Assembly: GCA_030427385.1 (NCBI GenBank) | Contig: JAUHWR010000001.1 | Location: forward strand, 1,544,042 to 1,608,041 | Direction of reading: 5' to 3' | Length of the DNA stretch: 64,000 bases | DNA from: Alphaproteobacteria bacterium | Lineage (GTDB): Bacteria; Pseudomonadota; Alphaproteobacteria; Micavibrionales; Micavibrionaceae | Shown here: positions 41,960 to 63,332 of the stretch, in pieces | Numbering within the stretch: position 1 is the stretch's first letter | Layout of the letters: the number at the start of each line of letters is the position of its first letter | Made by a program: the position numbers and the translations under genes | Notes under the pieces: generated by a model | What the model saw: the letters and a program-made list of their open reading frames with translations, nothing else | The model's database searches: none | Told to the model about the DNA's origin: nothing

Positions 41960-42964
41960 TTATAGACCCATAATCTTCTTTTTCCAATTAAGAGCGGAGG
42001 TTATAATCGTTTCTATACTATTATATTCCGGTGTCCAATCCAATGTCTTTAGGATTTTATCATTCGCCGCAATTAAGGCCGCGGGGTCACCTTCACGTCT
42101 TGGAGCTTGTGTGACGGAAAAATGATGTCCGGACACATTTTTAACCGCCTCAATAATCTGGCGGTTTGAATAGCCCTGACCATAACCGCAATTAAGTGCC
42201 AACGCTCCATTCACATCGCGGGTAATATTATATTTCAAAGCCGCAAGGTGTGCATTTACCAAATCATTAACATGAATATAATCACGCACGCACGTCCCAT
42301 CAATCGTATCATAATCCGTCCCAAAAATTGACATGCCGCTGCGAATGCCCAGAGCGGCTTCACAGGCTACCTCAATCAGATGGCGTGCTTTAAGGGAGTT
42401 TTGCCCTGTACGTTGCTGGATGTCTGCCCCCGCGACATTAAAATAACGCAACATTGTAATATTGACGTCGGGATATAAGCGCGCCAAATCCTCTAACATC
42501 CATTCCATAGCTAGCTTTGAGCGACCATAAGGATTAATCGGATTGTGCGGGTGATCTTCGGAGATCGGTAGAGATAGAGCCTCCCCATAAATCCCTGCGG
42601 AAGAAGAAAACACAATATTTTTGATGCCTTGCCGAAAGGCAAGATTAAAAAAGTTAAATGCAGATAGGGTATTGGCTTGATAATATAGATCAGGTTGCTC
42701 GATAGATTCCCCCACATAAATCAAACCCGCAAAATGAATGATGGCATCGATATCCTGATAGAGGGAAAACAAATCCTTCATGGCTGCCATATCGCCAATA
42801 TCCGCGCGGATAAAAGAAACATGCAAAGAATCGAAAAAATCTTCCGGCGCGCGGCTATTTGATAAATTATCAACGCCGATAACATCCTGCCCGGCATCAA
42901 GTAATGCCAAAACCATATGTTTGGCAATATAGCCGTTAGCGCCGGTGACTAAAACCTTTCCCAT
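41960..42964 (-). CDS. galE: UDP-glucose 4-epimerase
   Basis: VLVTGANGYIAKH Rossmann motif, catalytic YGRSK, 334 aa. Confidence 0.85.
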   Translation of the reverse strand: MGKVLVTGANGYIAKHMVLALLDAGQDVIGVDNLSNSRAPEDFFDSLHVSFIRADIGDMAAMKDLFSLYQDIDAIIHFAGLIYVGESIEQPDLYYQANTLSAFNFFNLAFRQGIKNIVFSSSAGIYGEALSLPISEDHPHNPINPYGRSKLAMEWMLEDLARLYPDVNITMLRYFNVAGADIQQRTGQNSLKARHLIEVACEAALGIRSGMSIFGTDYDTIDGTCVRDYIHVNDLVNAHLAALKYNITRDVNGALALNCGYGQGYSNRQIIEAVKNVSGHHFSVTQAPRREGDPAALIAANDKILKTLDWTPEYNSIETIITSALNWKKKIMGL

Positions 42965-42988
42965 AATAATCTATTAAATGAAAATGTC

Positions 42989-43882
42989 TTATGCCGCAAG
43001 CTTTAATTTCGATAATGCGTTAATGTGATTCGGCCCAACCCCGCAACATCCCCCTATGATGCTTGCCCCTGCGGAAATCCATTGCGCGGCGAATTCCTGA
43101 TAAGTTTGCGGCGTTATTTCAGAGCGTATCTCTTTTAAGCCGTCATTTGCCTGTTGTGTTTTTGAAATTGGAGTAAAAGCATTGGCGTACGCACCGCGAC
43201 GTATGGTGACATCACAATCTTGTAAAATTTGAAGTGCGGGTTGCATTTCTTCGGGTTGGCTGCAATTGAATAATACGCCTTCAAGATCATGATTTTTGAT
43301 AAATGTGGCGACATCTTCAATGGATTCACCCGCGCGCAATTGCGGCGGAATAGCTGTGTCCCCTTCACGATCTGTCAGGGTAAATGACATCCATTTTGGT
43401 TTGTTACTGCGCTGTAACGCTTTCATTACCGCTGCCGCTTCTTCTAGAGATGACATTGTTTCCACCAGCCAGAGATCACAATCAGATTCTTGTTCTTCTA
43501 TCAGGGGGCCATATAACGCGGCGGCTTTATATGCGGAAAAATAATCGGGGCGATAGGATCCGAATACCGGCGGGATGCATCCCGCAACCTTTACGGGGCT
43601 TGTGGCATCATTCGCCGCCTTGCGCGCTAGCTTTGCCGCCAAAGCTATTAGAGCCCTGCCCCCATTATCAAAGCGCTCTTGCCCGATATGAAAGGGGATG
43701 AGCGCGTAGCTATTTGTAGTAATGACATCCGCGCCCGCATCAATGAAAGCGCGATGCGCCTGTGATACAAAATCCGGGGCATCGATAAGGGCGGCTGCCG
43801 ACCATTCGGGTTGACGAAATGGCGCGCCCATGGATTGTAATAACCGCCCCATACCGCCATCCAAGATTAATAAATCTGACAT
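42989..43882 (-). CDS. Homocysteine S-methyltransferase family protein
   Basis: N-terminal LILDGGMGRLL, internal zinc-ligand Cys (AGCIPP) and C-terminal GGCCGVGPNHI. Confidence 0.8.
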   Translation of the reverse strand: MSDLLILDGGMGRLLQSMGAPFRQPEWSAAALIDAPDFVSQAHRAFIDAGADVITTNSYALIPFHIGQERFDNGGRALIALAAKLARKAANDATSPVKVAGCIPPVFGSYRPDYFSAYKAAALYGPLIEEQESDCDLWLVETMSSLEEAAAVMKALQRSNKPKWMSFTLTDREGDTAIPPQLRAGESIEDVATFIKNHDLEGVLFNCSQPEEMQPALQILQDCDVTIRRGAYANAFTPISKTQQANDGLKEIRSEITPQTYQEFAAQWISAGASIIGGCCGVGPNHINALSKLKLAA

Positions 43883-43885
43883 GTT

Positions 43886-45373
43886 CTATCCTTGTGTAAA
43901 TAATGATAAATAATTTGACCATTGCCCATATAATTCTGCGCTTTGATGTGCGCTCATTTTCGGTGCATACGTTCGATCCGGTTGCCAATGATTGGCAATA
44001 TCATCCAGACCGTCATACATGCCGACCGATAACCCCGCCAGATAGGCCGCACCAAGCGCAGTGGTTTCCGTGACCTTTGGCACATCAATCTGAATTTGTA
44101 AAATATCCGCCAAGAATTGGCAGACAAATTCATTCGCCACCAAACCGCCATCAACCCGTAGCCTATTCGCCTCAATACCTGCATCTGATCCCATTGCGGC
44201 GAAGAGGTCCATCGTTTGATAAGCCTGTGCCTCCAGAGCGGCACGGATAATATGGGCTTTATTTGCACCGCGGCTCAACCCCATAATTGCGCCGCGTGCG
44301 TCCGGTTTCCAATGCGGCGCGCCAAGTCCCGTAAAGGCAGGAATAAGGTAGACGCCATTATTATCCGTCACAGATTGTGCCAAATCTTGCGTTTCCGCCG
44401 CGTTTTTAACCAGTCCCAATTCATCGCGCAGCCATTGCACAATAGCACCCGCCATAAAGATCGAGCCTTCGATAGCATAGTTGATTTGTCCATCCAACCG
44501 ATAGGCGGGGGTAGTTAATAAACGGTTTTGGCTTTGTTTAAATTCTGCGCCAATATTCATTAACGCAAAACAGCCTGTGCCATAGGTTGATTTGATCATT
44601 CCTTTTTCAAAACATCCTTGCCCGATTAAGGCGGCCTGTTGATCCCCCGCGATTCCGCCAATCGGGATAGATAAACCAAATAAGGCAGGGTCAGTCACCC
44701 CAAAATCAGCAACATTGTCTTTAACATCCGGCAATATGGCAGCAGGAATATTGTAAATATTTAATAATTCCGCATCCCATTCTTGGGTTACGATATTATA
44801 AAGACCGGTTCGCGAAGCATTGGTAATATCAGTCACATGCTGCGCGCCGCCTGTTAAGTTCCAAACCAAGAAACTATCGATTGTACCAAATGCCAAATCA
44901 CCTTTTTGCGCTAACTGTGCGGTATGATCATCATGATCCAGAATCCATTTAATTTTGCTGCATGAAAAATACGGATCAATCAGTAGGCCCGTCTTTGCAG
45001 AAATCTGGCTTTCAAGCCCCTTATCCTTTAAAGTCTGGCAGTAATTTGCCGTTCTGCGATCTTGCCAAACGATCGCATTATAGACTGGCTTTCCGGTTGT
45101 TTTATCCCATAAAACCACGGTTTCGCGTTGGTTTGTAATACCGATTGCCGCAATTTGTTGTTCGGGATTTTTTTGCGACAGAACATTTTTGATCGTTTGA
45201 AGCGTATCACGCCAGATATCATTCGCATCTTGTTCGACCCATCCGGATTGCGGATAATGTTGTTTGAGCTCAATTTGGGAGGTATGAAGCGGGCGGGCAT
45301 CATGGGAAAATAATATGGCGCGGCTGCTGGTTGTGCCTTGATCAAGGGCGAGAATTAGCGGCTGTGTTGTCAT
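43886..45373 (-). CDS. glpK: Glycerol kinase
   Basis: LILALDQGTTSSRAILF, GITNQRETVVLWD and WILDH motifs. 495 aa. Confidence 0.95.
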   Translation of the reverse strand: MTTQPLILALDQGTTSSRAILFSHDARPLHTSQIELKQHYPQSGWVEQDANDIWRDTLQTIKNVLSQKNPEQQIAAIGITNQRETVVLWDKTTGKPVYNAIVWQDRRTANYCQTLKDKGLESQISAKTGLLIDPYFSCSKIKWILDHDDHTAQLAQKGDLAFGTIDSFLVWNLTGGAQHVTDITNASRTGLYNIVTQEWDAELLNIYNIPAAILPDVKDNVADFGVTDPALFGLSIPIGGIAGDQQAALIGQGCFEKGMIKSTYGTGCFALMNIGAEFKQSQNRLLTTPAYRLDGQINYAIEGSIFMAGAIVQWLRDELGLVKNAAETQDLAQSVTDNNGVYLIPAFTGLGAPHWKPDARGAIMGLSRGANKAHIIRAALEAQAYQTMDLFAAMGSDAGIEANRLRVDGGLVANEFVCQFLADILQIQIDVPKVTETTALGAAYLAGLSVGMYDGLDDIANHWQPDRTYAPKMSAHQSAELYGQWSNYLSLFTQG

Positions 45374-46868
45374 GACAAAGCTCCTTTACCAAGGTTGGAA
45401 TATGGTCTTCAAGCGCCTCTCTGGTTTGCGGGGAGATATGCAAACCGAGCTTAGAACGCCGCCATAAAATATCTTCTACGCTCCGCGCCCATTCCGCGCT
45501 GATAAGATAGCGAATTTCGGTCTCATATATGTGATCGCCAAAATGCTTGCCCAGATCATTTACATTTGAAGCGGTTTTTAGAATATCTTCAATTCTGCTG
45601 CCATAAGCGCGCGCATATCGGCGCAACATTTGCGGATCTGCCCAGGGATAATTTTGCTGTATTTGCTTAAAAAATGTTTCAAAATCCGCATCCTTAATTT
45701 GCCCCCCCGGTAATAAGGCGTTTTGCGTCCATTTATCTTTAATATGGGGAAAAAACGGTGCGATTTTAGTGATCGCCTGTTCGGATAATTTGCGGAACGT
45801 TGTAATTTTACCACCGAATATATTCAATAAAGGCGGACCAAAAGCGGTTTCCAAATCCAACTTATAATCACGCGTCACATTGGACAGGCTGTCATCACCG
45901 CTATCCAATAATGGTCGCACACCGCTATAATTCCAAACAATCTGGTCGGTGTTGGTTTGCTTGTCGAATGTACGGTTAACCGCATCACATAAATATTGCT
46001 TTTCATCATCCGATATCTCGGCATGACTTGGATCACCGTCATAGAGAGCGTCTGTCGTACCGATCAGGGTAAAATTACCCTCATACGGGATGGCAAATAC
46101 AATCCGCTGATCGGGTTGTTGCAAAATATAGGCATGATCGCCGTCATAAAGGCGCGGGATTATGATATGGCTGCCCTTTGAATAGCGTGTTTTGAGCGTA
46201 TCCGGTTGCTCAAGATGATTGTGATCAATAAATTGACGCACCCATGGCCCCGCCGCATTCACCACACATTTGGCCCCAACTTCAAAAATATCATTATTGT
46301 TACCTTTTAAAGATGCTTGCCAAATCTTGCCATCTGTTTTCAAGGACACGCATTCAGTGCGCGTTAAAATTTCAGCTCCCCGTTCGGCGGCATCTTTAGC
46401 GGACAAGACCACTAAGCGCGAATCTTCAACCCAGCAATCCGCGTAGGAAAATCCTTTTTTATACGAATTTTTTAAAGGCGCGCCTGCTTTGTTTTTGGAT
46501 AATTTCATTCCTTTGGAGCCAGGCAGAATTTCTCTCTTTCCCAAAAAATCATACAAATAAAGCCCAAGACGGATAAGCCAATAAGGGCGCAAATGCGGCT
46601 CATGGGGTAAGATAAATTGTAATGGCCAGATAATATGCGATGCACTGCGTAGTAAGCGCTCCCGCTCGGTTAGCGACTCTGCCACCAACTTGAAATCATA
46701 TTGTTCCAAATATCGCAGACCGCCATGAATTAATTTGGTGCTGGAGGAAGATGTAGCATTGGCAAGGTCATCTTTTTCAACTAGAAGAACGCTCAGTCCG
46801 CGTCCCGCCGCATCTCTGGCGATGCCGCATCCATTTACCCCGCCGCCAATTACAATCACGTCATACAT
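45342..46868 (-). CDS. glpD: Aerobic glycerol-3-phosphate dehydrogenase (FAD-dependent)
   Basis: MYDVIVIGGGVNGCGIARDAAGRG dinucleotide-binding motif and KLIHGGLRYLE. 508 aa. Its 3' end overlaps the glpK start by 32 nt. Confidence 0.9.
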   Translation of the reverse strand: MYDVIVIGGGVNGCGIARDAAGRGLSVLLVEKDDLANATSSSSTKLIHGGLRYLEQYDFKLVAESLTERERLLRSASHIIWPLQFILPHEPHLRPYWLIRLGLYLYDFLGKREILPGSKGMKLSKNKAGAPLKNSYKKGFSYADCWVEDSRLVVLSAKDAAERGAEILTRTECVSLKTDGKIWQASLKGNNNDIFEVGAKCVVNAAGPWVRQFIDHNHLEQPDTLKTRYSKGSHIIIPRLYDGDHAYILQQPDQRIVFAIPYEGNFTLIGTTDALYDGDPSHAEISDDEKQYLCDAVNRTFDKQTNTDQIVWNYSGVRPLLDSGDDSLSNVTRDYKLDLETAFGPPLLNIFGGKITTFRKLSEQAITKIAPFFPHIKDKWTQNALLPGGQIKDADFETFFKQIQQNYPWADPQMLRRYARAYGSRIEDILKTASNVNDLGKHFGDHIYETEIRYLISAEWARSVEDILWRRSKLGLHISPQTREALEDHIPTLVKELCHDNTAANSRP

Positions 46869-46971
46869 GATCTTAACTTAGCAGAAAATAGTGTGATTTC
46901 CAGAGATTATAAATATTCGTTTTTCCTCGCGACATATACGGCGCGGTCATTTAGATATCTTAAATCCTCAG

Positions 46972-49900
46972 CTAATCCATTAACGCTTGACGAAGCTTTG
47001 CCTGACGATTTTCGTGATACGTTAAGACATCTACAAAGGCGCTATTTACATCATATTGGCGCAATATATCCGCCTCATCAGAAATATCTTGGATATCGCT
47101 TATATCTTGTAAGAAGTCCATCGCTTCACGCATATTCGTATAACCGCCGGAATTATCAACATTTTCAAAAGAAACAACCTGCTTTTGAACTACCTCATCA
47201 TTATTTTGCGCTATAAATGGTATGGATAAATCAAGGCCTAAAATCTCTCGAATGCGATCCGTAGTATGATTGCGTAAAATTTGGTCGGTTTTGATTTCGA
47301 ATAAATCACGTTGACCAAAATTTCCTGTGATATCTGACAATAATAAATTACTATCGCGCACCGGCTCTTTTAAGCTCAGGAATTCAAGATCCGCGTGACG
47401 GCGTGTGCGCTCCGGCTCTATAAATCCTTCATTACTGAATTCGGCAATATCATTAATATCAATGGTGAAGGTTTGATCAAACGTATTGCCCTCCACATCC
47501 GTAACGCGAACAACAATGTCTATCGATGAGAATTCTTCAAAATCAAGCGCATTGCTTTGAAGCAATAACTGATCTCCTGAGATCATAAACATATTATCAG
47601 GATTCGTCATCAGCGTGTAACTCATCACGTCATTGGGCATATTCGCATCTGTTGCCGCAAGATTACCAACCAGTGTTTGTTCTTCGGAATTTTCATCTAT
47701 ATTCATGTTATCCAGCTCGATAACATCCGGCGCCACGTTATCTGTGACGTTAATCGTAAATATCTGATCAAATGTGCCGCCATTACCATCATCGGATCGA
47801 ACGGTCACGGAATGTGTGGCCTGTGATTCAAAATCAAGCGCGGCATTTAAAACAAGATTTCCACTGTCCAAAATGAATTTGCTGTCCGGATCGGCGATAA
47901 TGCTATAGGTGAAGCTATCCGCAGGAAGATCAGAATCCGTGGTAGATAGCGCGCCGATAATCGTGCCAATTTCAGATGTTTCCAATATATCAAGATTTGA
48001 AAGATCAATAGCTGTAGGTGCATCATTTTGCGGCGTTACGGTAATTGCGATGCTAGCCGTATCAGCAATTGCGCCATGTTCAAGACCATCAGCAAGGGAG
48101 ACATCAAAGCCGGCGGTGAGTGTCTCACTGCCATCATGAATGAATGCGACATCAGAATTTATAATATCCTGATACGTGAACGTATTTTGAGCAACGCCGC
48201 CAACTTCTATCGTGCCATTGGATATATTTGATGCAGTGAATGTAATGTCTGCATTTATATCATCCGGGTCAATTCCGCTTAAGTCTGTCGTGGTTAGAGT
48301 GTAGCTTGCGCCCTCATTCATGGCGATGGTTAAATCCCCCCCAATCACCGCGGAGTCATTTTGCGGGGTCACGGTAATATTGAACGTATCTGCCGCAAGG
48401 GTATTTGTCGCATCGCGCACTGTGAAATCAAAGCTATCCGTTGTTGTCTCACTGCCATTATGGACATATTGCACGCGCCCCGCCTGAATATCTGCCAAGG
48501 AGAAACTGGTAATTGCCACGCCTGCATTTGTGGAAAGCTGGAGACGGCCATTACTTAATGCGCCTGTCACATCAAAGATTACCGCGGCAGGCAGCGTATC
48601 AACATCCGATGTTGTTAGTGCCGCTGTTGTAATATCAATTGTGGCGCCCTCATTTAAGGTAATGCCATTATTTGTGGCCACGGCGGGCAGATCATCCACC
48701 GGAGTTACAGTTATGCTCATTACATCAGTATCTGCCACTGCGCCATGCTCCAATCCATCGGCGAGGGAGATATTAAATCCGGCGGTTACTGTCTCACTAC
48801 CATCATGGGTGAATGTAACATCGTTATCTATAATATTTTGGCGTGTGAATGTATTTTGCGTCACGCCGCCCACTTTAATAATGCCGTTTGATAATGCCGA
48901 AACAGTATAGGTAACATCGCCCGCGCCATCATCCGGATCAATCGCGCTCAAATCCGCGGTTGTGATTGTGACGCTATTACCTTCGATGACAGTCATGGAA
49001 AGATCGCCTGTAATGACCGCGCCATCATTTTGCGGTGTAATAACAATATTGAATGTGTCCGCCGCCAATGTGTTTGTTTCATCGCGCACTGTGAATGTGA
49101 AGCTATCTGTTGTTGTCTCGCTGCCATCATGGACAAATCGCACGCGCCCCGCATTGATATCCGCCAAAGAAAACGCCGTAATGGCAACACCCGGCGCAGT
49201 TGAGCGCTCTAAACGCCCATTTGCAGGCGAGGCCGTCACATCAAAAATCACTTTACGCGGTTCAGTATCAATATCCGTAGTGGTTAATTGTGCGTTGGAA
49301 ATAGTAACGGTTGCACCTTCATTTAAAGTTACGCCGTTATTGATGGCCGCGGTCGGTAAATCATCCACCGCATCAATGATAATATCAAAGCGCCCCGTAT
49401 CAGGAAGCGTGCCATTTTCCGTACCGTCAATGACAGATAGATCAAATCCCGCCGTTAATGTATCGCCGCCATCATGGATAAACGTTAGACGATTATTATC
49501 TATGTCATCCTGCGTAAAGGTTGTTGCCATGACGCCGTTAACTTCCAAATGGCCATTTTCAATGTTGGATGCGGTATATGTTAATCCGGTTCCGCTATCA
49601 TCCACATCCACTGTATTAATATGAACATTTGTCAGGTTCAGCGCACCGCCTTCATTCATGCGAACTTCATTTCCGCTTTCGTAAAAGTTAACATTGCGGA
49701 ACGTAATTGAGCTTGTCCCCGATGCATCATGATCCAGAACAAATACCATCTGGGTCATATTGCCGGTGTAATCCTGCCCGATCGGAATATCAAATCGCAC
49801 CCAGCCATCACCAGATTGATATGTACGGAATGTCTGATCCATACCTGACCATACTTGCGAGCCATATAATTGATATCCTAATACCCCGCCGCCAAAGCCG

Positions 49901-52900
49901 CTTGCATCATCAAAGCCAATCCCCACGATCTCTGCCGGATCATCCGTCTGAAATTCAAATGACAATACCGTATTTGCCGTTAAAGAATAGGGATATAGAA
50001 CACGCTTCCATGCATTACCACCAATCGTTAGTTCAGATCCATCTGCACTGACGGTTGCTGTAGCTGGCAAGCCGTTTTGCCCGTCTTGAAAAGCATCAAA
50101 GGCTTCTATTGTATAATCATTAAAATCGATAATATTCGGCGCGCCGTCATTTATCACCAGAGTCGGTGCTTCGTTAATCGGTGTCACATTGATTAAGAAC
50201 GTATCAGTATCAGGCGCCGCGCTGTTTTCGCCGCCATCGGCAACTTGAATATCAAACCCCGCAACAGTTGTTTCGCTATCATCATGTATAAACGTGACCA
50301 ATCCAGCATCCAGATCGGCCTGCGTGAACGTATTTTGTGTCACGCCGTTCACTTGAATTATTCCGTTACTTAGATTAGACGCGGTCCAATCCAAACCTGT
50401 TCCGAAATCATCGGGGTCAAAGGAATCCAACATGGTGGTATTTAAAACCAGCGTTGCGCCTTCATTCATGGTCGGCGCAGCATTGGTGGAAATTATAGGT
50501 GCATCATTAATGTTATCAACGCTCATGCTAAATGTACCTGAGGCAGTGCCCGCCCCATGCTCCCCGCCGTCAGCAATTGTAAAATCAAAACTAGCCGTCG
50601 TCGGAGGGCCGCTATGGCGGAAAGCAATTCGTGAATTATCAATATCATCCTGCGTAAAGCTGGTAATCGCCACATTCGGGTTTGAGACAAATTCAACTTG
50701 TCCGTTAACTGTCCCTGTTATGTTGAAATCCAGACCAATGCCGCTATCATCCGGATCAGCGGCGCGCAAAACAGCATTTTTAATTAAGACAATGCTGTTC
50801 TGATTTACAGAGGAACCAAGATTTAAACCAATCGTCGGGGCATCATTCACCGCAATTTTTGTCAGGTTAATCGTAGCACTATCGGGGACAGCGCCATGCT
50901 CCCCGCCATCTGCCACGCTCACATCGAATTGTGCATTTCCTTCATTGCCATCATGACGAAACACAACCCGATTTGCATTTAAATCGGCTTGGGTAAACGA
51001 AAGGATCGGCACACCCGGATTAGTCGAAAGCTCCACAAAGCCATTTGTGATATTGGATAGTGTATAAGTAAGACCTGTGCCGCTATCATCCGGATCAGTC
51101 GTATTTAAAATTGCGGTTGTAATGGTTACGGTTTGACCTTCGACCACGCTGACGGGCGCATTTGTTGTGATGATCGGCGTATCATTTAACGGCGTTCTGG
51201 TAAGGGTGAATGTCCCCGTAGCGGGTACGGCGCTATCCTCCCCGTCATCCGCCAAAGAAAAGTCAAAGCTGCCATTGGCTTCTGCGCCGTCATGGATAAA
51301 GACAACCCGGTTATTATTGACATCATCTTGCGTAAATGTTGTGGATGTTACGCCGTTGACCTCTATGTGGCCATTTGCAATCGAACTGGCAGTATACGTT
51401 AATTGATCTGGTGTATCCGTTACATCTGTATCGGTTGAATCCAGCATTGCTTGGGATATGCCAATGCTACCCCCTTCCAACACAGTTGCGCCGGTATTGG
51501 TTATGATAGAGGGACCATAATTTACATCCGTGATCACAATATTAAAGGTGTTTCCTGATACTGTCTCCCCACCATCAGTTACACTGAAATCAAAACCATC
51601 GGACAAAGTCTGCGATCCGTCATGGATATAAACTACGCGGTTATTTTGTATATCATCAAGCGTGAAGCGTGAAATTTCATAACCGGGGTAAGTTGTTAAC
51701 TCAATACGGCCATTGACCGGCTTGCTTTCCATTCTAAAAATTGTATCGCTCGCCACATTATCAATATCGCTTATATTCAACTCCGCAATCGTAATCGGGG
51801 TTGTGGCCCCTTCCAGAACATTTAACGGGTTGTTATGTGTGATGGTAAAATCATCGTTAAAGTTAATAGTAATATCAATTTCCGCAAATTTCCCGCCAAC
51901 GGCTTCAGTGGCGCGAATGGTCAAAATGTAGCTATCTGTTACAGTTGCATTCAGATTTGTGGTATCCAGAATTCGTAATTCACCTGTCAGTGTATCAATC
52001 TCAAATATACCATCGCCATTTCCCGCCTGAACCGAATAGTTTAACACGCCGCCTTCGGGGTCAATCCCCTTCACAAACCCAACAGAATCGCCAACATTAA
52101 TGTCCGATCCATCAGGGTTGGAATGGCTGAGTGTATAAGTATCATTATTGATAACATCCTTGCCCTCCCACTCCACGACTGAATATCGCGAACTGCCATT
52201 ATTATCGTCATACCACAGGTCATTATTGTTCATCAGCGCATAGTTTGCGCCTGTACCGCTATTTGGCTCTGATCCGTTCCAGTTATTATAAAATGCACCA
52301 TTATCTACATTACCATTTCGCACAATTTGCATACCGGCTTCGGGGCCCGCCATCCAATACCACTCCCCTTCATTGCCGGAATCACTGGCGGCAATCCATG
52401 AATGTGTTGATGTCATCTGATCTACGAATGATTGCTCCGCAGCCGATGTGATGGTGACCAAATGCCCGCTTTGGCCAAAAAGAAGCTGCGTTTCCGCAAA
52501 TGATAACGCATCATCAAAAGACCTGTTTGTGGTGATCTCTTTACAAAAATTCCCTGTTGCCGCACTGTAATAAACACCAAAATAAGTTGTTTCAACAACT
52601 GCTTCCGCCGTCAGAAGGGGCGCTTCATCGATATCGGTGATGTTAATAACAACATTCCTGTCGGTATATTTTGATAAAGCATTGTCATCATAAGCGCGTA
52701 TACGAATGGTATATTGATTATCACGGTCATAATCCAATAACGTATTATTCGCAATTTCAATTAAACCCGTCGTTGCATTAATTTTGAATACATTATCGTT
52801 ATTACCGCTTACGATTGAATAGGTGCGCGTATCCCCTTCTGCATCTGTCGTTACAACCGTGCCGACATCATCATTAACACTCGCATTTTCGGCAATGGAA

Positions 52901-55530
52901 AAAGGGCCATAGCTTGTAAAAACCGGCGCCGTATTTTCAAGTGCATCCAGAATATTGATGGTATAGGTCTGATCATCAAAAAGTAACCCCGGCCCATTAT
53001 CCGTCGCACGTACATCCAATGTATATGATCGTATTCCCAATTCGTAATCAATTGAGCTGTTATCAATAATTTTAATTTCACCTGTGGCGCTATCAACCGA
53101 GAAAATGCCCACGCCCGTGCCACCGGTAATAGTATATGTCAGGCTTTGCCCAACATCCGGATCATATCCCGCCACATGCCCGATTTGATCATTATTCGGG
53201 GTTAATTCCGACATTTCAATGACACGGTCAGAACCGGTTTCCTTTAGTTCCTTAATTTTCAAATTATCGATGCCGAACGCTTCATTATTAAGATCATTTG
53301 TATTCAAGTTTGAACCAAAACCTAATTTAAAGGAGCTATCCGTATTCTTAATGGTTAAAGAATATCTGACGATCTGGTCCTGATAAGAGGTGTTATAAGT
53401 AATAAAGCCGATATCATCGGTTAATTCCTGTACGCGATATGTCACATCGCCAAATGTGCCACCCACTTCCCGATCATAAGTCGTGCGATTATAAATATCA
53501 TTGTTTAAAACCTGTGTATCATTAATAAACAGGTAAAATCTCTCGTTTTCCCAACTATCAAGCTCATAAAAATCAAACTCAATTGTGATATATTCCTGAT
53601 CACCGGACAGGGCGAATGTTTGAAATAATTCTTGATCGCCCGCAACGTGAACATTTCTGCCAAATCTGCCCCAAAACTGCGATAACGTGGCATCGGTTGA
53701 TGTTGTATTATTATTCCAACCTGATGCGCCGCCTTCAAAATCCTCATCATATATAGTTACTTCTTCCAATAAAACCGGCGCGGTATTGACGGTATTGACC
53801 CGGATATCATAGGTCTGTCCCGCAATCGTGTTGGTACCGTCATACAGGCTGAAGATAAATTGATCATCAGATCCGATCATGCTGTCATATGTGATTGAAC
53901 CAACATCTAAATCATTCTGTGTAAATGTATCCCCAAGCCCCAAAGCGACCCCGTCTTTGTAGATCGTGCCAAAAGAAACATTGCCGGTAATGGTGTAAAT
54001 CAAGGCGGAGGAGCTATCATCAATATCTGTGGCAATTAATTTGGTATTTAACTCACCTGGATCAAGCGGAAAATCATAGACAATAAAATCACTATCAATG
54101 GTGCCCTGAAAGGCCGTTGTTCCGTTCGCACTGCCGTTAAAACCGCCATAAGACCCACCGCCAACAACCCCGATGCCGCCGTCATTACCACCGGATAAAT
54201 CGGCTGTGTCCGTATATCCTGTTAAAGAGGCTTCGGCCGTTCTGCCATAAGAAAACCAATCAAAGTTTCCTGCTTGACGGTAATGCATTCTGATTTCGTT
54301 TGATTGCACATCAACTTCAACAACTACCGCATACTGCGTAGAGTTAGCCAAAGCCGCCCCAGAGGATAAAACGGGAGTATTAGAGGCCGCACCTGAATAC
54401 CAGACCAATTCGTTTGCGCTATTAAGATAGAGCCCTATTCCGCGACCTGATCCGCCATCTTCAAACAGAACTTGTCCGGGATTTGCCGCGTAATTAGTTG
54501 CCGCCGTTGTAAAAATAAGTGTGAACTGGCTGCTTTGACCATCTATCAAACCCTGATTTGTGCCATATGATCCAACCCCGCTTTCGCGATATTTTTCAAT
54601 GCCAAATGTGCTGGCATCGCCGCCGAGTGAGACGGAAAAGCCAAGCGAGACATCCGCGCCGTTATTGGTGACAATTATCGGTGCTTCATCAACCGGCGTA
54701 ACATCAATCGAAAATGTCTGCGCGGTTACTGTGTCTGTCCCATCCGTAATTGTAAAATCAAATGAATCCGATATGGTTTCGGAATCATCATGCACATATT
54801 GCACACGGTTATTATTAAGATCATCCAGTGAAAAAGACGTAATCGCAACGCCGGTATTTGTGCTCAGCTCTATGCGGCCATTTATGGTTGTACTTGTGAT
54901 ATTAAAGATTACTTCTGTATCCGTATTATCTGGATCGCTTACGCCCAACATCGCCGAAGTGATCGTTGCCGTACTACCTTCAAGAAGGCTGAGCGGTGTG
55001 TTTGTATCTACGCTTGGCGCTTCATTTTGAGCAACAACTGTCACACTGATATCTTCGGAAAAATACGCCCCTAGAGAGAAATTTATCGTACGGTTAAGCG
55101 TTGGGCTATCTGAGCTATTTTGATAAGTTATATTTTCTATCAAGCGTTCAATTGCCGCTTTGGACGCATTAATATTTAAATCAAAGACCAAATCCAAGCC
55201 GTTTGTTCCGTTTGAAGAAACCGTGGCAATCAATACGCCCTCAAAAGTCACGTTCGCTCCATCGAAACCGATTTGACCTGCGCCCGTGCCTTCATCATTT
55301 AAAGTTAATTGGTCTTCCGCGCCGCCCGTCGTTGATATCGTTAGCGCATCACCATCAAAATCGGTTGTTGTGCCTGAGATAGTAACGTCTGAATCAAGTA
55401 TTTGCGGAGTTGCATTGGCATCATTTTCCGCCATAACAGTTGTTGTCGTCAACGCCCCCAAAGAAGCATCCAACATCACGCGCTTTTCCAGCGCCATGAG
55501 GGTCAATCTCTTTTTTCGGATCCCTGACAT
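46972..55530 (-). CDS. Giant (~2850 aa) mosaic adhesin with about 20 cadherin-like/Ig-like ~105-aa repeats, classical cadherin repeats, LamG, two jelly-roll/CBM-like domains and a C-type lectin domain; no Sec signal, no RTX
   Basis: Recurrent repeat ...NEGA...I....L...D.D......F......NG..........IT.F...D.....V.F.HDGSE....F.F...DG. LamG at about 54100-54560. Jelly-roll at about 53250-53760. CTLD at about 52160-52560 (HSWIAASDSGNEGEWYWMAG...YNNWNGSEPN...WYDDNN...VVEWEG). CBM-like domain at about 49670-50140. Classical cadherin repeats at about 47440-48040 and 52590-53000. The ORF-track start at 55539 is a TTG; the ATG at 55528-55530 has a GGAAAGG SD. Confidence 0.85.
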   Translation of the reverse strand: MSGIRKKRLTLMALEKRVMLDASLGALTTTTVMAENDANATPQILDSDVTISGTTTDFDGDALTISTTGGAEDQLTLNDEGTGAGQIGFDGANVTFEGVLIATVSSNGTNGLDLVFDLNINASKAAIERLIENITYQNSSDSPTLNRTINFSLGAYFSEDISVTVVAQNEAPSVDTNTPLSLLEGSTATITSAMLGVSDPDNTDTEVIFNITSTTINGRIELSTNTGVAITSFSLDDLNNNRVQYVHDDSETISDSFDFTITDGTDTVTAQTFSIDVTPVDEAPIIVTNNGADVSLGFSVSLGGDASTFGIEKYRESGVGSYGTNQGLIDGQSSQFTLIFTTAATNYAANPGQVLFEDGGSGRGIGLYLNSANELVWYSGAASNTPVLSSGAALANSTQYAVVVEVDVQSNEIRMHYRQAGNFDWFSYGRTAEASLTGYTDTADLSGGNDGGIGVVGGGSYGGFNGSANGTTAFQGTIDSDFIVYDFPLDPGELNTKLIATDIDDSSSALIYTITGNVSFGTIYKDGVALGLGDTFTQNDLDVGSITYDSMIGSDDQFIFSLYDGTNTIAGQTYDIRVNTVNTAPVLLEEVTIYDEDFEGGASGWNNNTTSTDATLSQFWGRFGRNVHVAGDQELFQTFALSGDQEYITIEFDFYELDSWENERFYLFINDTQVLNNDIYNRTTYDREVGGTFGDVTYRVQELTDDIGFITYNTSYQDQIVRYSLTIKNTDSSFKLGFGSNLNTNDLNNEAFGIDNLKIKELKETGSDRVIEMSELTPNNDQIGHVAGYDPDVGQSLTYTITGGTGVGIFSVDSATGEIKIIDNSSIDYELGIRSYTLDVRATDNGPGLLFDDQTYTINILDALENTAPVFTSYGPFSIAENASVNDDVGTVVTTDAEGDTRTYSIVSGNNDNVFKINATTGLIEIANNTLLDYDRDNQYTIRIRAYDDNALSKYTDRNVVINITDIDEAPLLTAEAVVETTYFGVYYSAATGNFCKEITTNRSFDDALSFAETQLLFGQSGHLVTITSAAEQSFVDQMTSTHSWIAASDSGNEGEWYWMAGPEAGMQIVRNGNVDNGAFYNNWNGSEPNSGTGANYALMNNNDLWYDDNNGSSRYSVVEWEGKDVINNDTYTLSHSNPDGSDINVGDSVGFVKGIDPEGGVLNYSVQAGNGDGIFEIDTLTGELRILDTTNLNATVTDSYILTIRATEAVGGKFAEIDITINFNDDFTITHNNPLNVLEGATTPITIAELNISDIDNVASDTIFRMESKPVNGRIELTTYPGYEISRFTLDDIQNNRVVYIHDGSQTLSDGFDFSVTDGGETVSGNTFNIVITDVNYGPSIITNTGATVLEGGSIGISQAMLDSTDTDVTDTPDQLTYTASSIANGHIEVNGVTSTTFTQDDVNNNRVVFIHDGAEANGSFDFSLADDGEDSAVPATGTFTLTRTPLNDTPIITTNAPVSVVEGQTVTITTAILNTTDPDDSGTGLTYTLSNITNGFVELSTNPGVPILSFTQADLNANRVVFRHDGNEGNAQFDVSVADGGEHGAVPDSATINLTKIAVNDAPTIGLNLGSSVNQNSIVLIKNAVLRAADPDDSGIGLDFNITGTVNGQVEFVSNPNVAITSFTQDDIDNSRIAFRHSGPPTTASFDFTIADGGEHGAGTASGTFSMSVDNINDAPIISTNAAPTMNEGATLVLNTTMLDSFDPDDFGTGLDWTASNLSNGIIQVNGVTQNTFTQADLDAGLVTFIHDDSETTVAGFDIQVADGGENSAAPDTDTFLINVTPINEAPTLVINDGAPNIIDFNDYTIEAFDAFQDGQNGLPATATVSADGSELTIGGNAWKRVLYPYSLTANTVLSFEFQTDDPAEIVGIGFDDASGFGGGVLGYQLYGSQVWSGMDQTFRTYQSGDGWVRFDIPIGQDYTGNMTQMVFVLDHDASGTSSITFRNVNFYESGNEVRMNEGGALNLTNVHINTVDVDDSGTGLTYTASNIENGHLEVNGVMATTFTQDDIDNNRLTFIHDGGDTLTAGFDLSVIDGTENGTLPDTGRFDIIIDAVDDLPTAAINNGVTLNEGATVTISNAQLTTTDIDTEPRKVIFDVTASPANGRLERSTAPGVAITAFSLADINAGRVRFVHDGSETTTDSFTFTVRDETNTLAADTFNIVITPQNDGAVITGDLSMTVIEGNSVTITTADLSAIDPDDGAGDVTYTVSALSNGIIKVGGVTQNTFTRQNIIDNDVTFTHDGSETVTAGFNISLADGLEHGAVADTDVMSITVTPVDDLPAVATNNGITLNEGATIDITTAALTTSDVDTLPAAVIFDVTGALSNGRLQLSTNAGVAITSFSLADIQAGRVQYVHNGSETTTDSFDFTVRDATNTLAADTFNITVTPQNDSAVIGGDLTIAMNEGASYTLTTTDLSGIDPDDINADITFTASNISNGTIEVGGVAQNTFTYQDIINSDVAFIHDGSETLTAGFDVSLADGLEHGAIADTASIAITVTPQNDAPTAIDLSNLDILETSEIGTIIGALSTTDSDLPADSFTYSIIADPDSKFILDSGNLVLNAALDFESQATHSVTVRSDDGNGGTFDQIFTINVTDNVAPDVIELDNMNIDENSEEQTLVGNLAATDANMPNDVMSYTLMTNPDNMFMISGDQLLLQSNALDFEEFSSIDIVVRVTDVEGNTFDQTFTIDINDIAEFSNEGFIEPERTRRHADLEFLSLKEPVRDSNLLLSDITGNFGQRDLFEIKTDQILRNHTTDRIREILGLDLSIPFIAQNNDEVVQKQVVSFENVDNSGGYTNMREAMDFLQDISDIQDISDEADILRQYDVNSAFVDVLTYHENRQAKLRQALMD
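48028..49365 (-). repeat. Near-exact tandem duplication (two units of 669 bp / 223 aa, each a two-domain unit) inside the adhesin gene
   Basis: The units begin at DDLPTAAINNG (first Asp codon at 49363-49365) and DDLPAVATNNG (48694-48696), exactly 669 bp apart. Long identical DNA runs occur, for example CATCGCGCACTGTGAA in both copies (near 48410 and 49080). Confidence 0.85.
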
Positions 55531-55610
55531 CAATAACAACCTTTCCGTCTTCTATTAAGTGTAATCGGATTTGGTTAAGAACTCTTAAAATTTTCAATAG
55601 TATCAGCAAT

Positions 55611-57032
55611 TTAATGCGTCATGACGATATCTCTCGCTAATGTATTTTGAAAGGTTGCATAGGCATCTTGCAGATCCGTTAACGATTGGTAATAAGATAT
55701 TTTTTTAGATTGCGCCTGCATCTTACGGATAAAAGCATCCTGTTTTGTTTCAAACCCAACGCCTGATTTCTTTTCCAGCGCATAAGCCATGAATTTTTCA
55801 TTCTCATATTCTTTCTGGCGATCACGCGTTAATTGATAAAAATAATCCAGCCTTTGCCGCGCCAAATGTACCTGTGTCATTACCGCCAAAGTCAATGATA
55901 ACCGCTTGGCGTTATCTATCTCCATTTGGTTTTTCGCCCCGCGCTTACGAAGGGGATAAGTAATCAGAGCAGATAAGTTTTGCTGCAAGGATAACGTGAA
56001 ACTGCCCCATTGATTTTGTCTTAAAAAATCGTTGCCATCGCGATTAATGCCAAATAATAATTCCGCGCCCGGAACGGTGCGAATGATTTCCTCGCGTAAG
56101 TTTTGTAAATTCACATCCCGCTGCAATACTTGTTCACGTATCTCAGGACGATTTTTAATTGCCTCTGCTTCAAGAGTTTCTATATCTTCCGCCAGAAGTG
56201 CCTTCACCTCTTTCGATGGTATCCGCATATCTTCGCTTAGTTTCAGATTGATATTTTGCGGATAAGATAACAGGCTTTTCAACTCGGTCATCGCCAGAGA
56301 AATCTGGCTTTGAGAGTTACGAAGCGCGGTAAGTGATTCTTGGATATCCTGTTCCATATCTCCTAATACTTCACGTGAAAGTAGCTTTTTATTCTCTGCG
56401 GTTTTTATATTTTGAAGCAATTCCTGCGCTTGGCGAAAAATAGCATCGCTTTCCTTTTCAGTTTTTTGTGCGGCGAGCGCACGGTAATAAGCGGCATAAA
56501 TATCCTTTTGAATATTCTGGACGACTTTATTATAACGCTCTATCGCTATTTTTTGCTGCGCTTTTGCATTTTGTGCCTGAGACACCGCCAATAATATATT
56601 TAACGTTGTCCAGTTCACGCTTAAATCTTGGGTATCCCGAAAGGACTGGGTTGAATATGATGGCTCTAATGATTGGGTATTTGTTAAAACTGACCGGCTA
56701 GACGCCGCGCCCTTATTGGATCGCCCAATATAGCTCGCATTTAAGTTTAAAGATGGTAGCGCATTCATTCTGGCCAGATCAATCTGGTCTTCGGCGGCCA
56801 GAGTTTCTAATGCGGCAACATATGCATCTAAATTCTTTTCTGCGCCGCGCCTTAAGGCATCATTCAAGGTTAGATGAATTGTTTGATGTTGAAAATCATC
56901 AAATCCCAATGCCTTTTGATCTTGCGCTAATACATCAATATGCTGCGCGCTATCCATCTCCGTTGGAGTTGTAGTACAACCGCACAAAAGGACAAAACCG
57001 CCAAGAAACATTAATTTTAAGTTGGGTATCAT
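55611..57032 (-). CDS. TolC-family outer-membrane channel lipoprotein
   Basis: Lipobox LLCGC. Two-fold repeated coiled-coil/beta architecture typical of OEP proteins (473 aa). Its start overlaps the upstream gene's stop (ATGA at 57029-57032). Confidence 0.8.
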   Translation of the reverse strand: MIPNLKLMFLGGFVLLCGCTTTPTEMDSAQHIDVLAQDQKALGFDDFQHQTIHLTLNDALRRGAEKNLDAYVAALETLAAEDQIDLARMNALPSLNLNASYIGRSNKGAASSRSVLTNTQSLEPSYSTQSFRDTQDLSVNWTTLNILLAVSQAQNAKAQQKIAIERYNKVVQNIQKDIYAAYYRALAAQKTEKESDAIFRQAQELLQNIKTAENKKLLSREVLGDMEQDIQESLTALRNSQSQISLAMTELKSLLSYPQNINLKLSEDMRIPSKEVKALLAEDIETLEAEAIKNRPEIREQVLQRDVNLQNLREEIIRTVPGAELLFGINRDGNDFLRQNQWGSFTLSLQQNLSALITYPLRKRGAKNQMEIDNAKRLSLTLAVMTQVHLARQRLDYFYQLTRDRQKEYENEKFMAYALEKKSGVGFETKQDAFIRKMQAQSKKISYYQSLTDLQDAYATFQNTLARDIVMTH

Positions 57033-59158
57033 GAGATCACATCACTTTCCGGTAAAATAATAGAATAAGCCCATATTAATATCTGGACAATGGGGGCGAT
57101 TTTTTCCCCCGACATCATGACCTTGCCTGTTGCGGCAAAAGGTACATCCGACACATCTGGGGTTAAGGTTACTTTATACAAAGTTTGGCGCGGAACGATG
57201 CGCTCTTCTTCATATCCATTTGTGAAAAACTCACTATAGATAGAACCGCCATAGAGTGAGGATAATTCCTTTTTATCCAGACTGCTTATGTTTGTTTGCT
57301 CAATGTCTTGTACTTTTACGGGGATGGTATCAGCAAGAGCATAATCTGCCCGAAAACTCCCTTTTGTACCCGCCTTCAATCTTTCAAATTGCTGCTCTGT
57401 GACATAAGCACTTACTTTATAAACTTGTGGCTTTATGAGGCGAAATAGTAATTTTTCTTGTCCGACATATAGACCTTCATGCAAATCTTCGGCGCCGTCT
57501 TTAATAATACTGTCATAGGGCGCTTTAATAACAAGCTGTTCCTTTTTCACCTCGAAGGAGGATACTTTTAGTGATAATTCTTTGATTTCATTTTCTAATT
57601 GATCCAGATCCTCCCGCAGCAATGCCGCATCTGTTTGGCGGCGTCTCTTGATTTTCTCCAATTCCTGTAGCGAATTTTTGGCGATATTATAATCGCGTTC
57701 CAATTCTTCTGATTGCATGTAAATTAAGACTTCACTGGCTTTGACCATACGGTTTTCCGTGACATTTAAAGAGATAATTTGCGCAGGATATGGTGCATAA
57801 ATATCGCGATATTCCGCAGCATGAATTAAAGCGGGAATTTGCATACGCATATTTAAGGGAATAAATAATAAACACAAAGCGCATGCAAATAATAGAACGC
57901 TTATTTTGCCTCTCGCATGGATAAGAATGTCTTGCCTGCGAGTCGCCCATATTTTGAGCTCCGATAAGATGGGCTTACCTATAAACCACAGCAATTCAAT
58001 GCCCATAAGAATTAACCCAAGCGGCTTTGGGAATAACACATATACCAAATACGCAATCCCCAAAAATAGGAAGAAACGATAAATCAAAATGGCCCAGCCA
58101 AAGATGATAAAAAACTTTATTTTTTCTGGCCGCCCATATTCCGGGCACTCATCTTTCCATCCGAATAATGTTTTACGCAAAGCCCAGCGCGCACAGGCAA
58201 AAGAGCGTGCATGAAGGTTTTCTATGCTGAGCATATCGCTTAAAATGAAATATCCATCAAAGCGCATTAGCGGGTTTAGGTTAATCAATAATGAGCCGAT
58301 AAGTGAGATACTCACGATACTAAAAGCAATACTCTGCAATGTGCCGGGCGCGGAAAAATTCCAAATTAACAGAAAAATAGAGGCGAGCATTAATTCAATG
58401 CGTATCCCGGCAAGACCAATTTCAATCTTTTCTTTCTTAGAAGCCAAATGCCAGGCGGCCGTGGTTTCTGTGTAAAATACCGGATACATCACCATAAAGG
58501 CAATGCCCATATGCGGTACCTTTAACCCATATTTATGCGCAGTATATGCATGTCCAAGCTCATGAAATAATTTGATAATTGTAAATATTATGGCGATCAT
58601 CATTGCACCTTCTGCACTGAATAAGTCCATAAAAGTATGGATAAATTCATCCGCGCGCCCCAATGTCATGATCACGCCCAATATCAATAATAAAACACTA
58701 AAAAACGTTGCTTCTCTGGAGAATAAAAAAGCAAGATACGGATACGTCGCCTTTAAGAAATTTTGCGGGCGAAATATGGGCAAAGAAAAAAATAAATATT
58801 TATGAACCAGTTCAGATAATAACGATTTTTCTTTTTGGGGCGGGGTAAGGGGCAGCCCGTCTGTTTCTAAAATTAATCCATGTTGATTTAGAAATAACAA
58901 CAATTCCTTAAAAACATCCGTCTCCGGCTCCAGAGTGGTTTGATTATGTAGTAAAGACGCAAGATCATCATATGTTTCACAAAATGAAAAGCGGGACAGA
59001 TATTCAAATTCAACCCAGCCAATTTGAAAATATTGATGGGAAACGGGATGATATAACCGCCAGAATGGCTGCCCATCCTCATCAATGCCGCCCTTTATTA
59101 ACTTCAAATCCGGACTAAGGCGGGGTATTTTTGTATCGGCGCTTACCTCGAACATCAT
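57029..59158 (-). CDS. Fusion protein: cytoplasmic PqqD/RRE-like N-domain, polytopic S2P/M50 zinc metalloprotease, and HlyD-type membrane fusion (periplasmic adaptor) domain
   Basis: HELGH at 58550-58564 and NLNPLMRFDG at 58253-58282 (S2P HExxH and NxxPxxxxDG motifs) sit inside hydrophobic helices. At least six TM segments. The C-terminal 260 aa have a coiled coil (EELERDYNIAKNSLQELEKIKRRRQ...) plus beta-barrel segments typical of MFPs. Confidence 0.75.
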   Translation of the reverse strand: MMFEVSADTKIPRLSPDLKLIKGGIDEDGQPFWRLYHPVSHQYFQIGWVEFEYLSRFSFCETYDDLASLLHNQTTLEPETDVFKELLLFLNQHGLILETDGLPLTPPQKEKSLLSELVHKYLFFSLPIFRPQNFLKATYPYLAFLFSREATFFSVLLLILGVIMTLGRADEFIHTFMDLFSAEGAMMIAIIFTIIKLFHELGHAYTAHKYGLKVPHMGIAFMVMYPVFYTETTAAWHLASKKEKIEIGLAGIRIELMLASIFLLIWNFSAPGTLQSIAFSIVSISLIGSLLINLNPLMRFDGYFILSDMLSIENLHARSFACARWALRKTLFGWKDECPEYGRPEKIKFFIIFGWAILIYRFFLFLGIAYLVYVLFPKPLGLILMGIELLWFIGKPILSELKIWATRRQDILIHARGKISVLLFACALCLLFIPLNMRMQIPALIHAAEYRDIYAPYPAQIISLNVTENRMVKASEVLIYMQSEELERDYNIAKNSLQELEKIKRRRQTDAALLREDLDQLENEIKELSLKVSSFEVKKEQLVIKAPYDSIIKDGAEDLHEGLYVGQEKLLFRLIKPQVYKVSAYVTEQQFERLKAGTKGSFRADYALADTIPVKVQDIEQTNISSLDKKELSSLYGGSIYSEFFTNGYEEERIVPRQTLYKVTLTPDVSDVPFAATGKVMMSGEKIAPIVQILIWAYSIILPESDVIS

Positions 59159-63250: not shown

Positions 63251-63332
63251 GAGATAGGTATAGAAGTTTTTTCTGTCGATGAAAACAAAGAAAAGGCTTT
63301 TCCTTCCTATTGTTTCGATTGTATAAAACCAT

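Follow-up and report, generated by a model that had tools for sequence, protein, structure and literature searches.

To our knowledge, all well-studied giant Gram-negative adhesins that combine a repeat stalk with lectin modules depend on type I secretion, with a C-terminal RTX signal and an ABC pump. Such RTX adhesins hold their N-terminus at the cell and carry their adhesion domains beside the C-terminal signal (Vance et al. 2019, PMC6650083). A gene row of a different kind was described by Kamneva, Poudel and Ward (2015, PMC4452313) as T1SS-like (type I secretion system, T1SS): GAF-HlyD; M50-HlyD; HlyD/biotin-lipoyl; secondary SecA_DEAD; and sometimes an outer-membrane factor (OEP). The role of this module was called "completely unknown" and no cargo was named, the words giant, adhesin, and cadherin being absent from the text. 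A third point of reference is the LEPR-XLL class of giant proteins (NCBIfam NF012209, often with DUF4347); our literature search on LEPR-XLL, DUF4347, or adhesin export by a site-2 protease with HlyD and TolC found no mechanistic paper, and LEPR-XLL was mentioned in passing only in the literature found. Here we analyze a giant adhesin gene (46972..55530, minus strand) and the operon upstream of it, hereafter the cassette, in a window of 64,000 nucleotides from an Alphaproteobacteria bacterium of the Micavibrionaceae (assembly GCA_030427385.1, contig JAUHWR010000001.1, positions 1,544,042 to 1,608,041); coordinates are those of this window unless another locus is named. We consider it rather probable that this giant acidic protein, with its cadherin stalk and lectin heads, belongs to the LEPR-XLL-type class and is the dedicated cargo of the upstream pump-less operon.

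Compared with the RTX/T1SS giants (LapA with LapBCE, SiiE with SiiCDF, MpIBP, and MhLap; PMC6650083), the protein is likewise giant, acidic, poor in cysteine, and built on a predicted calcium-dependent stalk of Ig/cadherin-like domains with inserted sugar-binding modules, and HlyD-type adaptors and a TolC-type channel are encoded alongside. Unlike them, it lacks RTX nonapeptides, a T1SS C-terminal domain, a BapA-prefix module, and an adjacent ABC transporter; it has a conserved N-terminal tag, and its lectin modules lie toward the N-terminus instead of the C-terminus. With the LEPR-XLL giants it shares the motif L-E-x-R-h-h-h-D-[AG]-[AS] after basic residues, the giant repetitive build, and the same neighboring cassette, but it has Lys for Pro in the motif, a score below the family cut-off, no DUF4347, and a family-specific C-terminal module of three motifs. 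The upstream operon resembles the module of Kamneva et al. in its M50-HlyD fusion, two more HlyD proteins, and OEP; unlike that module, it comes with no secondary SecA_DEAD gene, either at the locus or elsewhere in its own genome. What is new is a leader-tagged, RTX-free, cassette-linked giant adhesin with reversed module polarity; the gene row was already known, its role being given as unknown (PMC4452313).

N-terminal tag and upstream cassette

The gene, its leader, and the cassette are laid out as follows:

46972..55530, minus strand: giant adhesin gene, 2,852 amino acids (aa) from the ATG at 55530, stop codon included
55405..55530, minus strand: N-terminal leader MSGIRKKRLTLMALEKRVMLDASLGAL..., aa 4-45, a basic stretch and then the tag
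55462..55491, minus strand: LEKRVMLDAS tag, residues 14-23 from the ATG, a Pro-to-Lys variant of LEPR-XLL
55611..57032, minus strand: TolC-type outer-membrane factor (OEP) with a lipoprotein-like signal, 473 aa, its stop 80 bp upstream of the adhesin start
57029..59158, minus strand: fusion of an M50 (HExxH intramembrane) protease and an HlyD adaptor, 709 aa
59162..61742, minus strand: two HlyD-type adaptors, one of 443 aa with a long N-terminal cytoplasmic domain and one of 419 aa

The adhesin is encoded by a single open reading frame (ORF; 46972..55539, minus strand) that is opened by an in-frame TTG at 55539 and from there runs for 2,855 aa. The ATG at 55530 is likely the best start, because the N-termini of the homologues agree with it and a Shine-Dalgarno-like site (GGAAAGG) lies 9 nt upstream; the gene extent of the first-pass annotation, 46972-55530 with its start at this ATG, is borne out on the same grounds. 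Residue numbers of modules given below count from the ORF-opening TTG, and those of the tag from the ATG. About 40 homologues open with M-x-(basic)-x-L-x-I-x-x-LEKR[LV]M[LF]DASLG. The database gene call (P0004, 2,841 aa) begins at MALEKR (55489-55497) and so loses the basic part of the leader that all homologues keep. A Sec signal was considered for this leader and rejected: among the first 60 aa no 15-residue stretch exceeds a hydropathy of 1.19, and the best one contains charged residues.

The tag belongs to the motif class L-E-[PK]-R-h-h-h-D-[GA]-[AS]. In 45 distinct cassette-linked tagged giants four positions never vary, namely the L, the E, the R, and the Asp at the fourth position behind the R, this Asp without having been required by the search pattern; 12 of these 45 have K in place of P. 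All four cassette genes are co-directional with the adhesin gene, which follows 80 bp downstream, and searches of the window proteins against Pfam and NCBIfam detected no ABC, RND, or MFS pump gene in the cassette.

The distribution of this arrangement was followed by aligning four fusion proteins and scanning one genome per species, which gave 365 relatives and 80 loci that were kept; the gene order of the cassette was counted over 85 related loci. The 80 loci come from Alphaproteobacteria, Nitrospirales, Sphingomonadaceae, Kistimonas, Methylococcaceae, and others, and the nearest relatives are metagenome-assembled genomes (MAGs) labelled Alphaproteobacteria, Micavibrio, or Pseudobdellovibrionaceae. 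Of the 80 loci, 34 contain an ORF of 1000 aa or longer that bears the tag within residues 1-150; in 20 others the start of the giant ORF lies outside the locus, in five the giant ORF is untagged, and in 21, mostly short contigs, no giant ORF is present. Over the 85 loci the order is fixed, with the OEP present in 62, the first HlyD (HlyD1) in 76, the second HlyD in 81, and the fusion in 83; an ABC gene is absent from all 85. Direct look-ups of homologues returned the same pairing of cassette and giant in relatives at 45-61% identity of the fusion. The cassette-linked giants carry no RTX repeats (0-1 RTX-like matches each). Tag and cassette co-occur across phyla; the C-terminal module of the adhesin is confined to one small family. 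The 2.19-Mb genome of the organism itself contains one fusion gene, and among its ORFs of 300 aa or longer only that of the adhesin bears the tag within residues 1-60.

The protease part of the fusion matches models of M50 leader peptidases from the biosynthesis of ribosomally synthesized and post-translationally modified peptides (RiPPs), i.e., the daptide leader peptidase (NF041824, E 3.8e-40) and YydH/LiaK (NF058609, E 3.1e-13), in both cases below the equivalog cut-offs. The daptide/epipeptide group of leader peptidases is the named family nearest to it. Both catalytic motifs are kept: HExxH and NxxPxxxxDG are invariant across fusion homologues at 24-61% identity. By analogy, the likeness suggests recognition and removal of an N-terminal leader. 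Unlike the short peptides of the RiPP systems, the putative substrate has 2,852 aa, and a periplasmic adaptor forms part of the same polypeptide as the protease. Pfam found no PqqD/RiPP recognition element (RRE) or GAF signature in the N-terminal domain of either the M50 fusion or the 443-aa adaptor. In the latter this domain (180 aa) is without any Pfam match; its Methylomonas counterpart carries GAF.

Two candidates for an energy source were rejected. A MATE gene (61841-63466, upstream) is no conserved energizer, as it occurs only in the two nearest relatives (2/85 loci), and a second SecA does not exist in the genome, whose one SecA (943 aa) is the housekeeping protein. The locus of Methylomonas sp. 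OY6 (L012:1975-3972) combines the cassette with a 665-aa SecA-like ATPase and two HDOD genes; by tblastn it is the one locus of the 85 with a SecA-like gene.

Stalk, lectin modules, and C-terminus

Behind the leader the protein is made up of the following modules, listed from N- to C-terminus:

55006..55404, minus strand: N-module, aa 46-178, beta-type, without a Pfam model
54715..55002, minus strand: Cadherin_3 repeat 1, aa 180-275
54052..54702, minus strand: ConA-like (LamG/pentraxin/CBM40-type) module, aa 280-496, from a fold model
53812..54051, minus strand: Cadherin_3 repeat 2, aa 497-576
53206..53802, minus strand: second all-beta module (jelly-roll 2), aa 580-778, in 22 of about 40 homologues
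52645..53202, minus strand: two classical Cadherin repeats, aa 780-965
52135..52587, minus strand: C-type lectin domain (CTLD), aa 985-1135, with the Pfam stretch at aa 1023-1121
50206..52101, minus strand: one Cadherin and five Cadherin_3 repeats, aa 1147-1778 (Cadherin 1147-1225; Cadherin_3 1236-1778)
49672..50196, minus strand: module resembling a carbohydrate-binding module (CBM-like), aa 1782-1956, in 30 of about 40 homologues
47461..49671, minus strand: five Cadherin_3 and two Cadherin repeats, aa ~1957-2693 (Cadherin_3 to 2494; Cadherin 2522-2693)
46975..47454, minus strand: family-specific C-terminal module, aa 2696-2855, three conserved motifs with variable acidic spacers between them
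47236..47286, minus strand: C-terminal motif 1 DQILRNHTTDRIREILG, family consensus FYGE..GQILRENTT
47092..47145, minus strand: C-terminal motif 2 GYTNMREAMDFLQDISDI, family consensus YTNIRE.L.FL, a candidate amphipathic helix
46975..47040, minus strand: C-terminal motif 3 AFVDVLTYHENRQAKLRQALMD at the extreme end, family consensus F.DVLTYHEQR..KLR.AL

The whole protein is very acidic (422 D+E against 105 K+R) and contains one Cys, and hydropathy analysis found no hydrophobic or transmembrane-like segment in its 2,852 aa. A full-length NCBIfam scan returned only a weak tandem-95 match and no BapA-prefix-type N-terminal retention module. The repeats and modules were mapped with our own iterated hidden Markov models (HMMs). 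Above the Pfam gathering score there are 17 cadherin-type repeats, namely 12 Cadherin_3 (743 bits) and five Cadherin (141 bits), with overlapping matches to Cadherin_4 and Big_9; the repeats bear DxNDxP-type calcium linkers. The first-pass annotation, with its "about 20 Ig/cadherin-like repeats", had thus named the right kind of repeat and set the count too high. One two-domain Cadherin_3 unit is recently duplicated (48058-49341; aa 2067-2271 against 2290-2494, 73% and 67% identity), and the remaining repeat pairs are at 25-55% identity. Tandem-repeat DNA was rejected, as Tandem Repeats Finder finds no array.

The order of modules is kept across the about 40 homologues, where only jelly-roll 2 and the CBM-like module come and go; the CTLD is present in 40, the LamG-like module in 37, the CBM-like module in 30, and the second jelly-roll in 22. 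Because this order is conserved, the label "mosaic" that had been given to the protein needs correction: judged from its homologues, the arrangement is an old family architecture with few gains or losses and not the outcome of recent shuffling. The N-module (55006-55404) recurs inside many unrelated giant proteins, one of which scores 643 bits from multiple copies, and it has the look of a so far undescribed repeat domain, its signature being ITYxNxSDxP.

For the CTLD, Pfam Lectin_C (PF00059) scores 31.4 bits on the full protein and 36.5 bits on the fragment, against a cut-off of 22.6; phmmer matches in the PDB are CLEC4F, collectin placenta 1, langerin, CD23, MBP, and DC-SIGN; and a profile of the 13-sequence CTLD family reaches CD23, MBP, and SP-D at E 5.5e-11, aligning the WIGL-like core and EPN...WND. 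The domain shares this core, and EPN in the same place, with the carbohydrate recognition domains (CRDs) of the animal C-type lectins MBP-A, SP-D, CD23, DC-SIGN, and langerin. Unlike these it has WYD for WND, with Ala/Asn at the position of the mid-loop Glu of calcium site 2, and it lacks all four disulfide cysteines, the 13-sequence alignment having no conserved Cys column at all. The claim of a canonical CTLD of eukaryotic type therefore stands for the domain and is overstated in its qualifiers. On these profile matches the adhesin carries a true, disulfide-free bacterial CTLD, as would suit a chain that has to pass the envelope in unfolded form. EPN is nearly invariant in the family alignment. 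One homologue has QPD instead (L024:10808-11266), and full WND plus the mid-loop Glu are found in two others (L023:8396-8836; L043:14499-14927); CTLD homologues of the adhesin can thus switch to QPD, as animal CRDs do, and keep WND. Because the homologues switch between EPN and QPD, the family alignment argues for a sugar site that is in use. The EPN/QPD difference amounts to a switch in specificity that has arisen naturally in a single adhesin family.

A LamG jelly-roll had been claimed at aa 280-496, where neither the protein itself nor two divergent homologues gave a match to Laminin_G_1/2/3 or any other Pfam family at E<=1, and where the search of PDB sequences gave no LamG-type family, its sole match being an archaeal pilin (E 3.7e-4). 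The AlphaFold2 (AF2) model, built from 10 sequences, has a pLDDT of 74.9 and a pTM of 0.76, and Foldseek places it with CBM40, trans-sialidase lectin, pentraxin, and laminin LG4-5 (prob 1.00, E 2e-5 to 1e-3; TM-scores to those folds 0.45-0.56). The model thus points to a ConA-like, lectin-type fold that lies outside the LamG sequence families, with support at the level of fold only; the fold in the earlier claim is supported and the sequence-family membership is not. The second jelly-roll was not confirmed: its model is all-beta at low confidence (pLDDT 50.9), Foldseek gave weak matches only, to lectin/CBM/MAM-type sandwiches (best E 9e-3), and searches of Pfam, NCBIfam, and PDB sequences gave none. 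Nor could the CBM-like domain be substantiated, as Pfam (divergent homologues included), phmmer against the PDB, and a PDB profile search found no relative outside its own family. By hhalign, the LamG-like, jelly-roll 2, and CBM-like modules match each other only in the shared VTPVNDAP linker and are otherwise unrelated.

No GG.G.[DN] pattern occurs in the 2,855 aa by regular expression, and HemolysinCabind is not among the Pfam matches, in agreement with the first-pass statement that there is no GGxGxD nonapeptide anywhere. The acidic C-terminus noted there is also real, the last 156 aa having a net charge of -15. The DISDIQDISDEADI repeats reported within it reduce, in the family alignment, to a single short local duplication in a poorly conserved acidic spacer. 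For the same 156 aa, NCBIfam gave no match at E<=10 and Pfam none at E<=1, and no relative was found in the PDB, so that the earlier remark that a canonical RTX/T1SS signal is not evident is upheld. The last 166 aa, compared with 1.84 billion representative proteins, gave 8 matches, all at the C-terminal end of the target, and every full-length protein with this C-terminal module also bears the tag. Motif 2 has a hydrophobic moment of 0.49, above the 99th percentile for the adhesin. As judged from its repeats and domain matches, the giant adhesin is not an RTX/T1SS adhesin. Its reading as a glycan-binding adhesin, put forward in the first-pass annotation, is supported by the cadherin repeats, the CTLD, the ConA-like fold, and the absence of RTX; that interpretation had left the export route open and had missed the tag and the upstream operon.

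Across the cassette-linked giants the C-termini are lineage-specific and fall into two classes: a soluble acidic tail with a short helix at its end, and a hydrophobic helix. Members of the hydrophobic class (L026-L037 and L053 from Nitrospirales; P0052, P0071, and P0079) have a hydrophobic helix, W..FDP[LI]P[VI]L, and a charged tail. Such an end suggests anchoring in a membrane or sorting, and it differs from the soluble C-terminus that the adhesin family has.

Proposed export route and its alternatives

That the cassette exports the adhesin and that the tag is the address is, in our estimate, somewhat better than an even proposition. The cytoplasmic face of the protease-adaptor fusion would recognize the N-terminal tag, and the M50 domain would probably remove it, this weaker step being proposed by analogy with the RiPP leader peptidases. 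The unfolded chain would pass through the adaptor/TolC conduit and, again more weakly, may leave N-terminus first. Outside, the cadherin repeats would fold on binding calcium and form a stalk, interrupted by lectin heads: the ConA-like jelly-roll; the EPN-type CTLD; and two further beta modules. The C-terminal module would be the cell-proximal, retained end, the reverse of the RTX adhesins, which again is a weaker part of the proposal. The C-terminus is taken as the retained end because the first 40% of the protein contains the lectin heads and because the conserved C-terminal module is family-specific. Counted with the CBM-like module, lectin modules sit at aa 280-1135 and 1782-1956 of 2,852. 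Reversed polarity is suggested further because the tag alone is shared by all cassette-linked giants, whose C-termini differ from lineage to lineage, and because the hydrophobic C-terminal class of other lineages looks like an anchor.

Several observations weigh against this proposal. Its main weakness is that no energy source is encoded in the cassette. The LEPR-XLL model (NF012209) scores the tag at 14.0 bits, below its cut-off of 17 (E 0.028 for the 60-aa fragment), and for a PqqD/RRE-like tag-reading domain Pfam gave no match. Two distant tagged giants have no cassette within 10 kb, so that the link between tag and cassette is strong and not absolute at this range. The conserved motif of the adhesin family lies at the extreme C-terminus, where T1SS signals also lie, and C-terminal export by another system is a possible reading of it. 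The direction of transport and the C-terminal retention are read only from the placement of modules and from the hydrophobic C-termini of other lineages, and the sugar ligands, secretion, cleavage, and surface location of the adhesin are predictions from sequence. The energy might come from folding that calcium drives on the outside, or from a partner that is unlinked. In its fullest form the proposal is an undescribed, ABC-less and TolC-dependent route, in which an N-terminal leader would be read and cut by the M50-adaptor fusion, the chain would exit N-terminus first, possibly co-translationally, calcium folding would partly drive the passage, and the C-terminal module would tether the protein with a polarity opposite to that of all RTX adhesins; this complete version we put forward as tentative.

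One alternative is that the cassette only matures or regulates the adhesin, by leader removal, release, or quality control at the inner membrane, with translocation being powered by an unlinked ABC or other transporter acting on the three adaptors, or by SecA. In RiPP systems, relatives of the M50 protease remove leaders, and export is left to other proteins; YydH, for instance, works with YydIJ. No energizer is found in 84 of the 85 cassettes, and the Methylomonas version includes the SecA-like ATPase, a type of protein that was proposed as the motor by Kamneva et al. (2015, PMC4452313). A pure peptidase, however, would have no need of adaptors and a TolC-type channel kept in fixed order with the protease, the genome has its single SecA, and the adhesin has no Sec-type hydrophobic signal; we regard this alternative as unlikely.

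Another alternative is that the cassette, which lacks a motor, does some other job and that the adhesin is an atypical T1SS substrate, whose cryptic, non-RTX C-terminal signal (F.DVLTYHEQR..KLR.AL) is read by a canonical system of ABC transporter, membrane fusion protein (MFP), and TolC. Three canonical T1SS loci do exist elsewhere in the genome; T1SS signals are poorly conserved and sit at the extreme C-terminus; and it is there, after an acidic stretch, that the adhesin family has its conserved motif. Two of these loci, however, adjoin adhesin-type substrates of their own (2,161 aa and 1,079 aa) with VCA0849-type C-termini, from which the C-terminus of the giant adhesin is quite different; the 1,079-aa substrate also has a BapA-prefix-like N-terminus, and the third locus adjoins an 845-aa protein. 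With no RTX repeats, no match to a T1SS C-terminal domain model, and a C-terminal motif that is limited to a single small family (the 8 matches) when tag and cassette span phyla, this explanation seems to us quite improbable.

Least probable, and only slightly less so, is that the protein is no strict adhesin and is instead released to serve in a matrix or in the manner of an S-layer, or acts on prey or host in a contact-dependent way, with lectins aimed at the exopolysaccharide of the producer: flippase-like and galE-like polysaccharide-related genes near the adhesin locus in the window, nearest relatives among MAGs labelled Micavibrio or Pseudobdellovibrionaceae, and a 2.19-Mb genome rich in giant surface proteins speak for it, but Pfam and NCBIfam scans detected no enzymatic or toxin domain, extender repeats with lectin heads are the architecture of adhesins (PMC6650083), and the taxon names given to MAGs say little about lifestyle.

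Genome context and significance

Besides its T1SS loci the genome carries three TpsA-like giants and several other proteins of more than 2,000 aa. The giant and T1SS loci lie at 42810-54626, 671196-683054, 2018959-2026794, 101152-105906, 1557350-1564633, and 2117744-2125774 (numbering of the genome contig, G000:C1). For its size, the genome shows an unusually heavy investment in surface proteins. Elsewhere in the window, the segment 10001-12000 has a guanine + cytosine content of 52% against ~43% in the remainder and may hold a ribosomal RNA or other conserved RNA gene.

For the study of the giant adhesins, the protein analyzed here represents in clear form a second class that is widespread: stalk and lectin heads are built as in the RTX proteins, with an N-terminal tag, no RTX, and a pump-less operon. 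Its CTLD homologues, which switch between EPN and QPD, offer a natural system in which to study sugar specificity. Since the organism holds one cassette, one tagged cargo, and three T1SS loci that can serve as internal controls, both the exporter and the end that exits first are directly testable in it.

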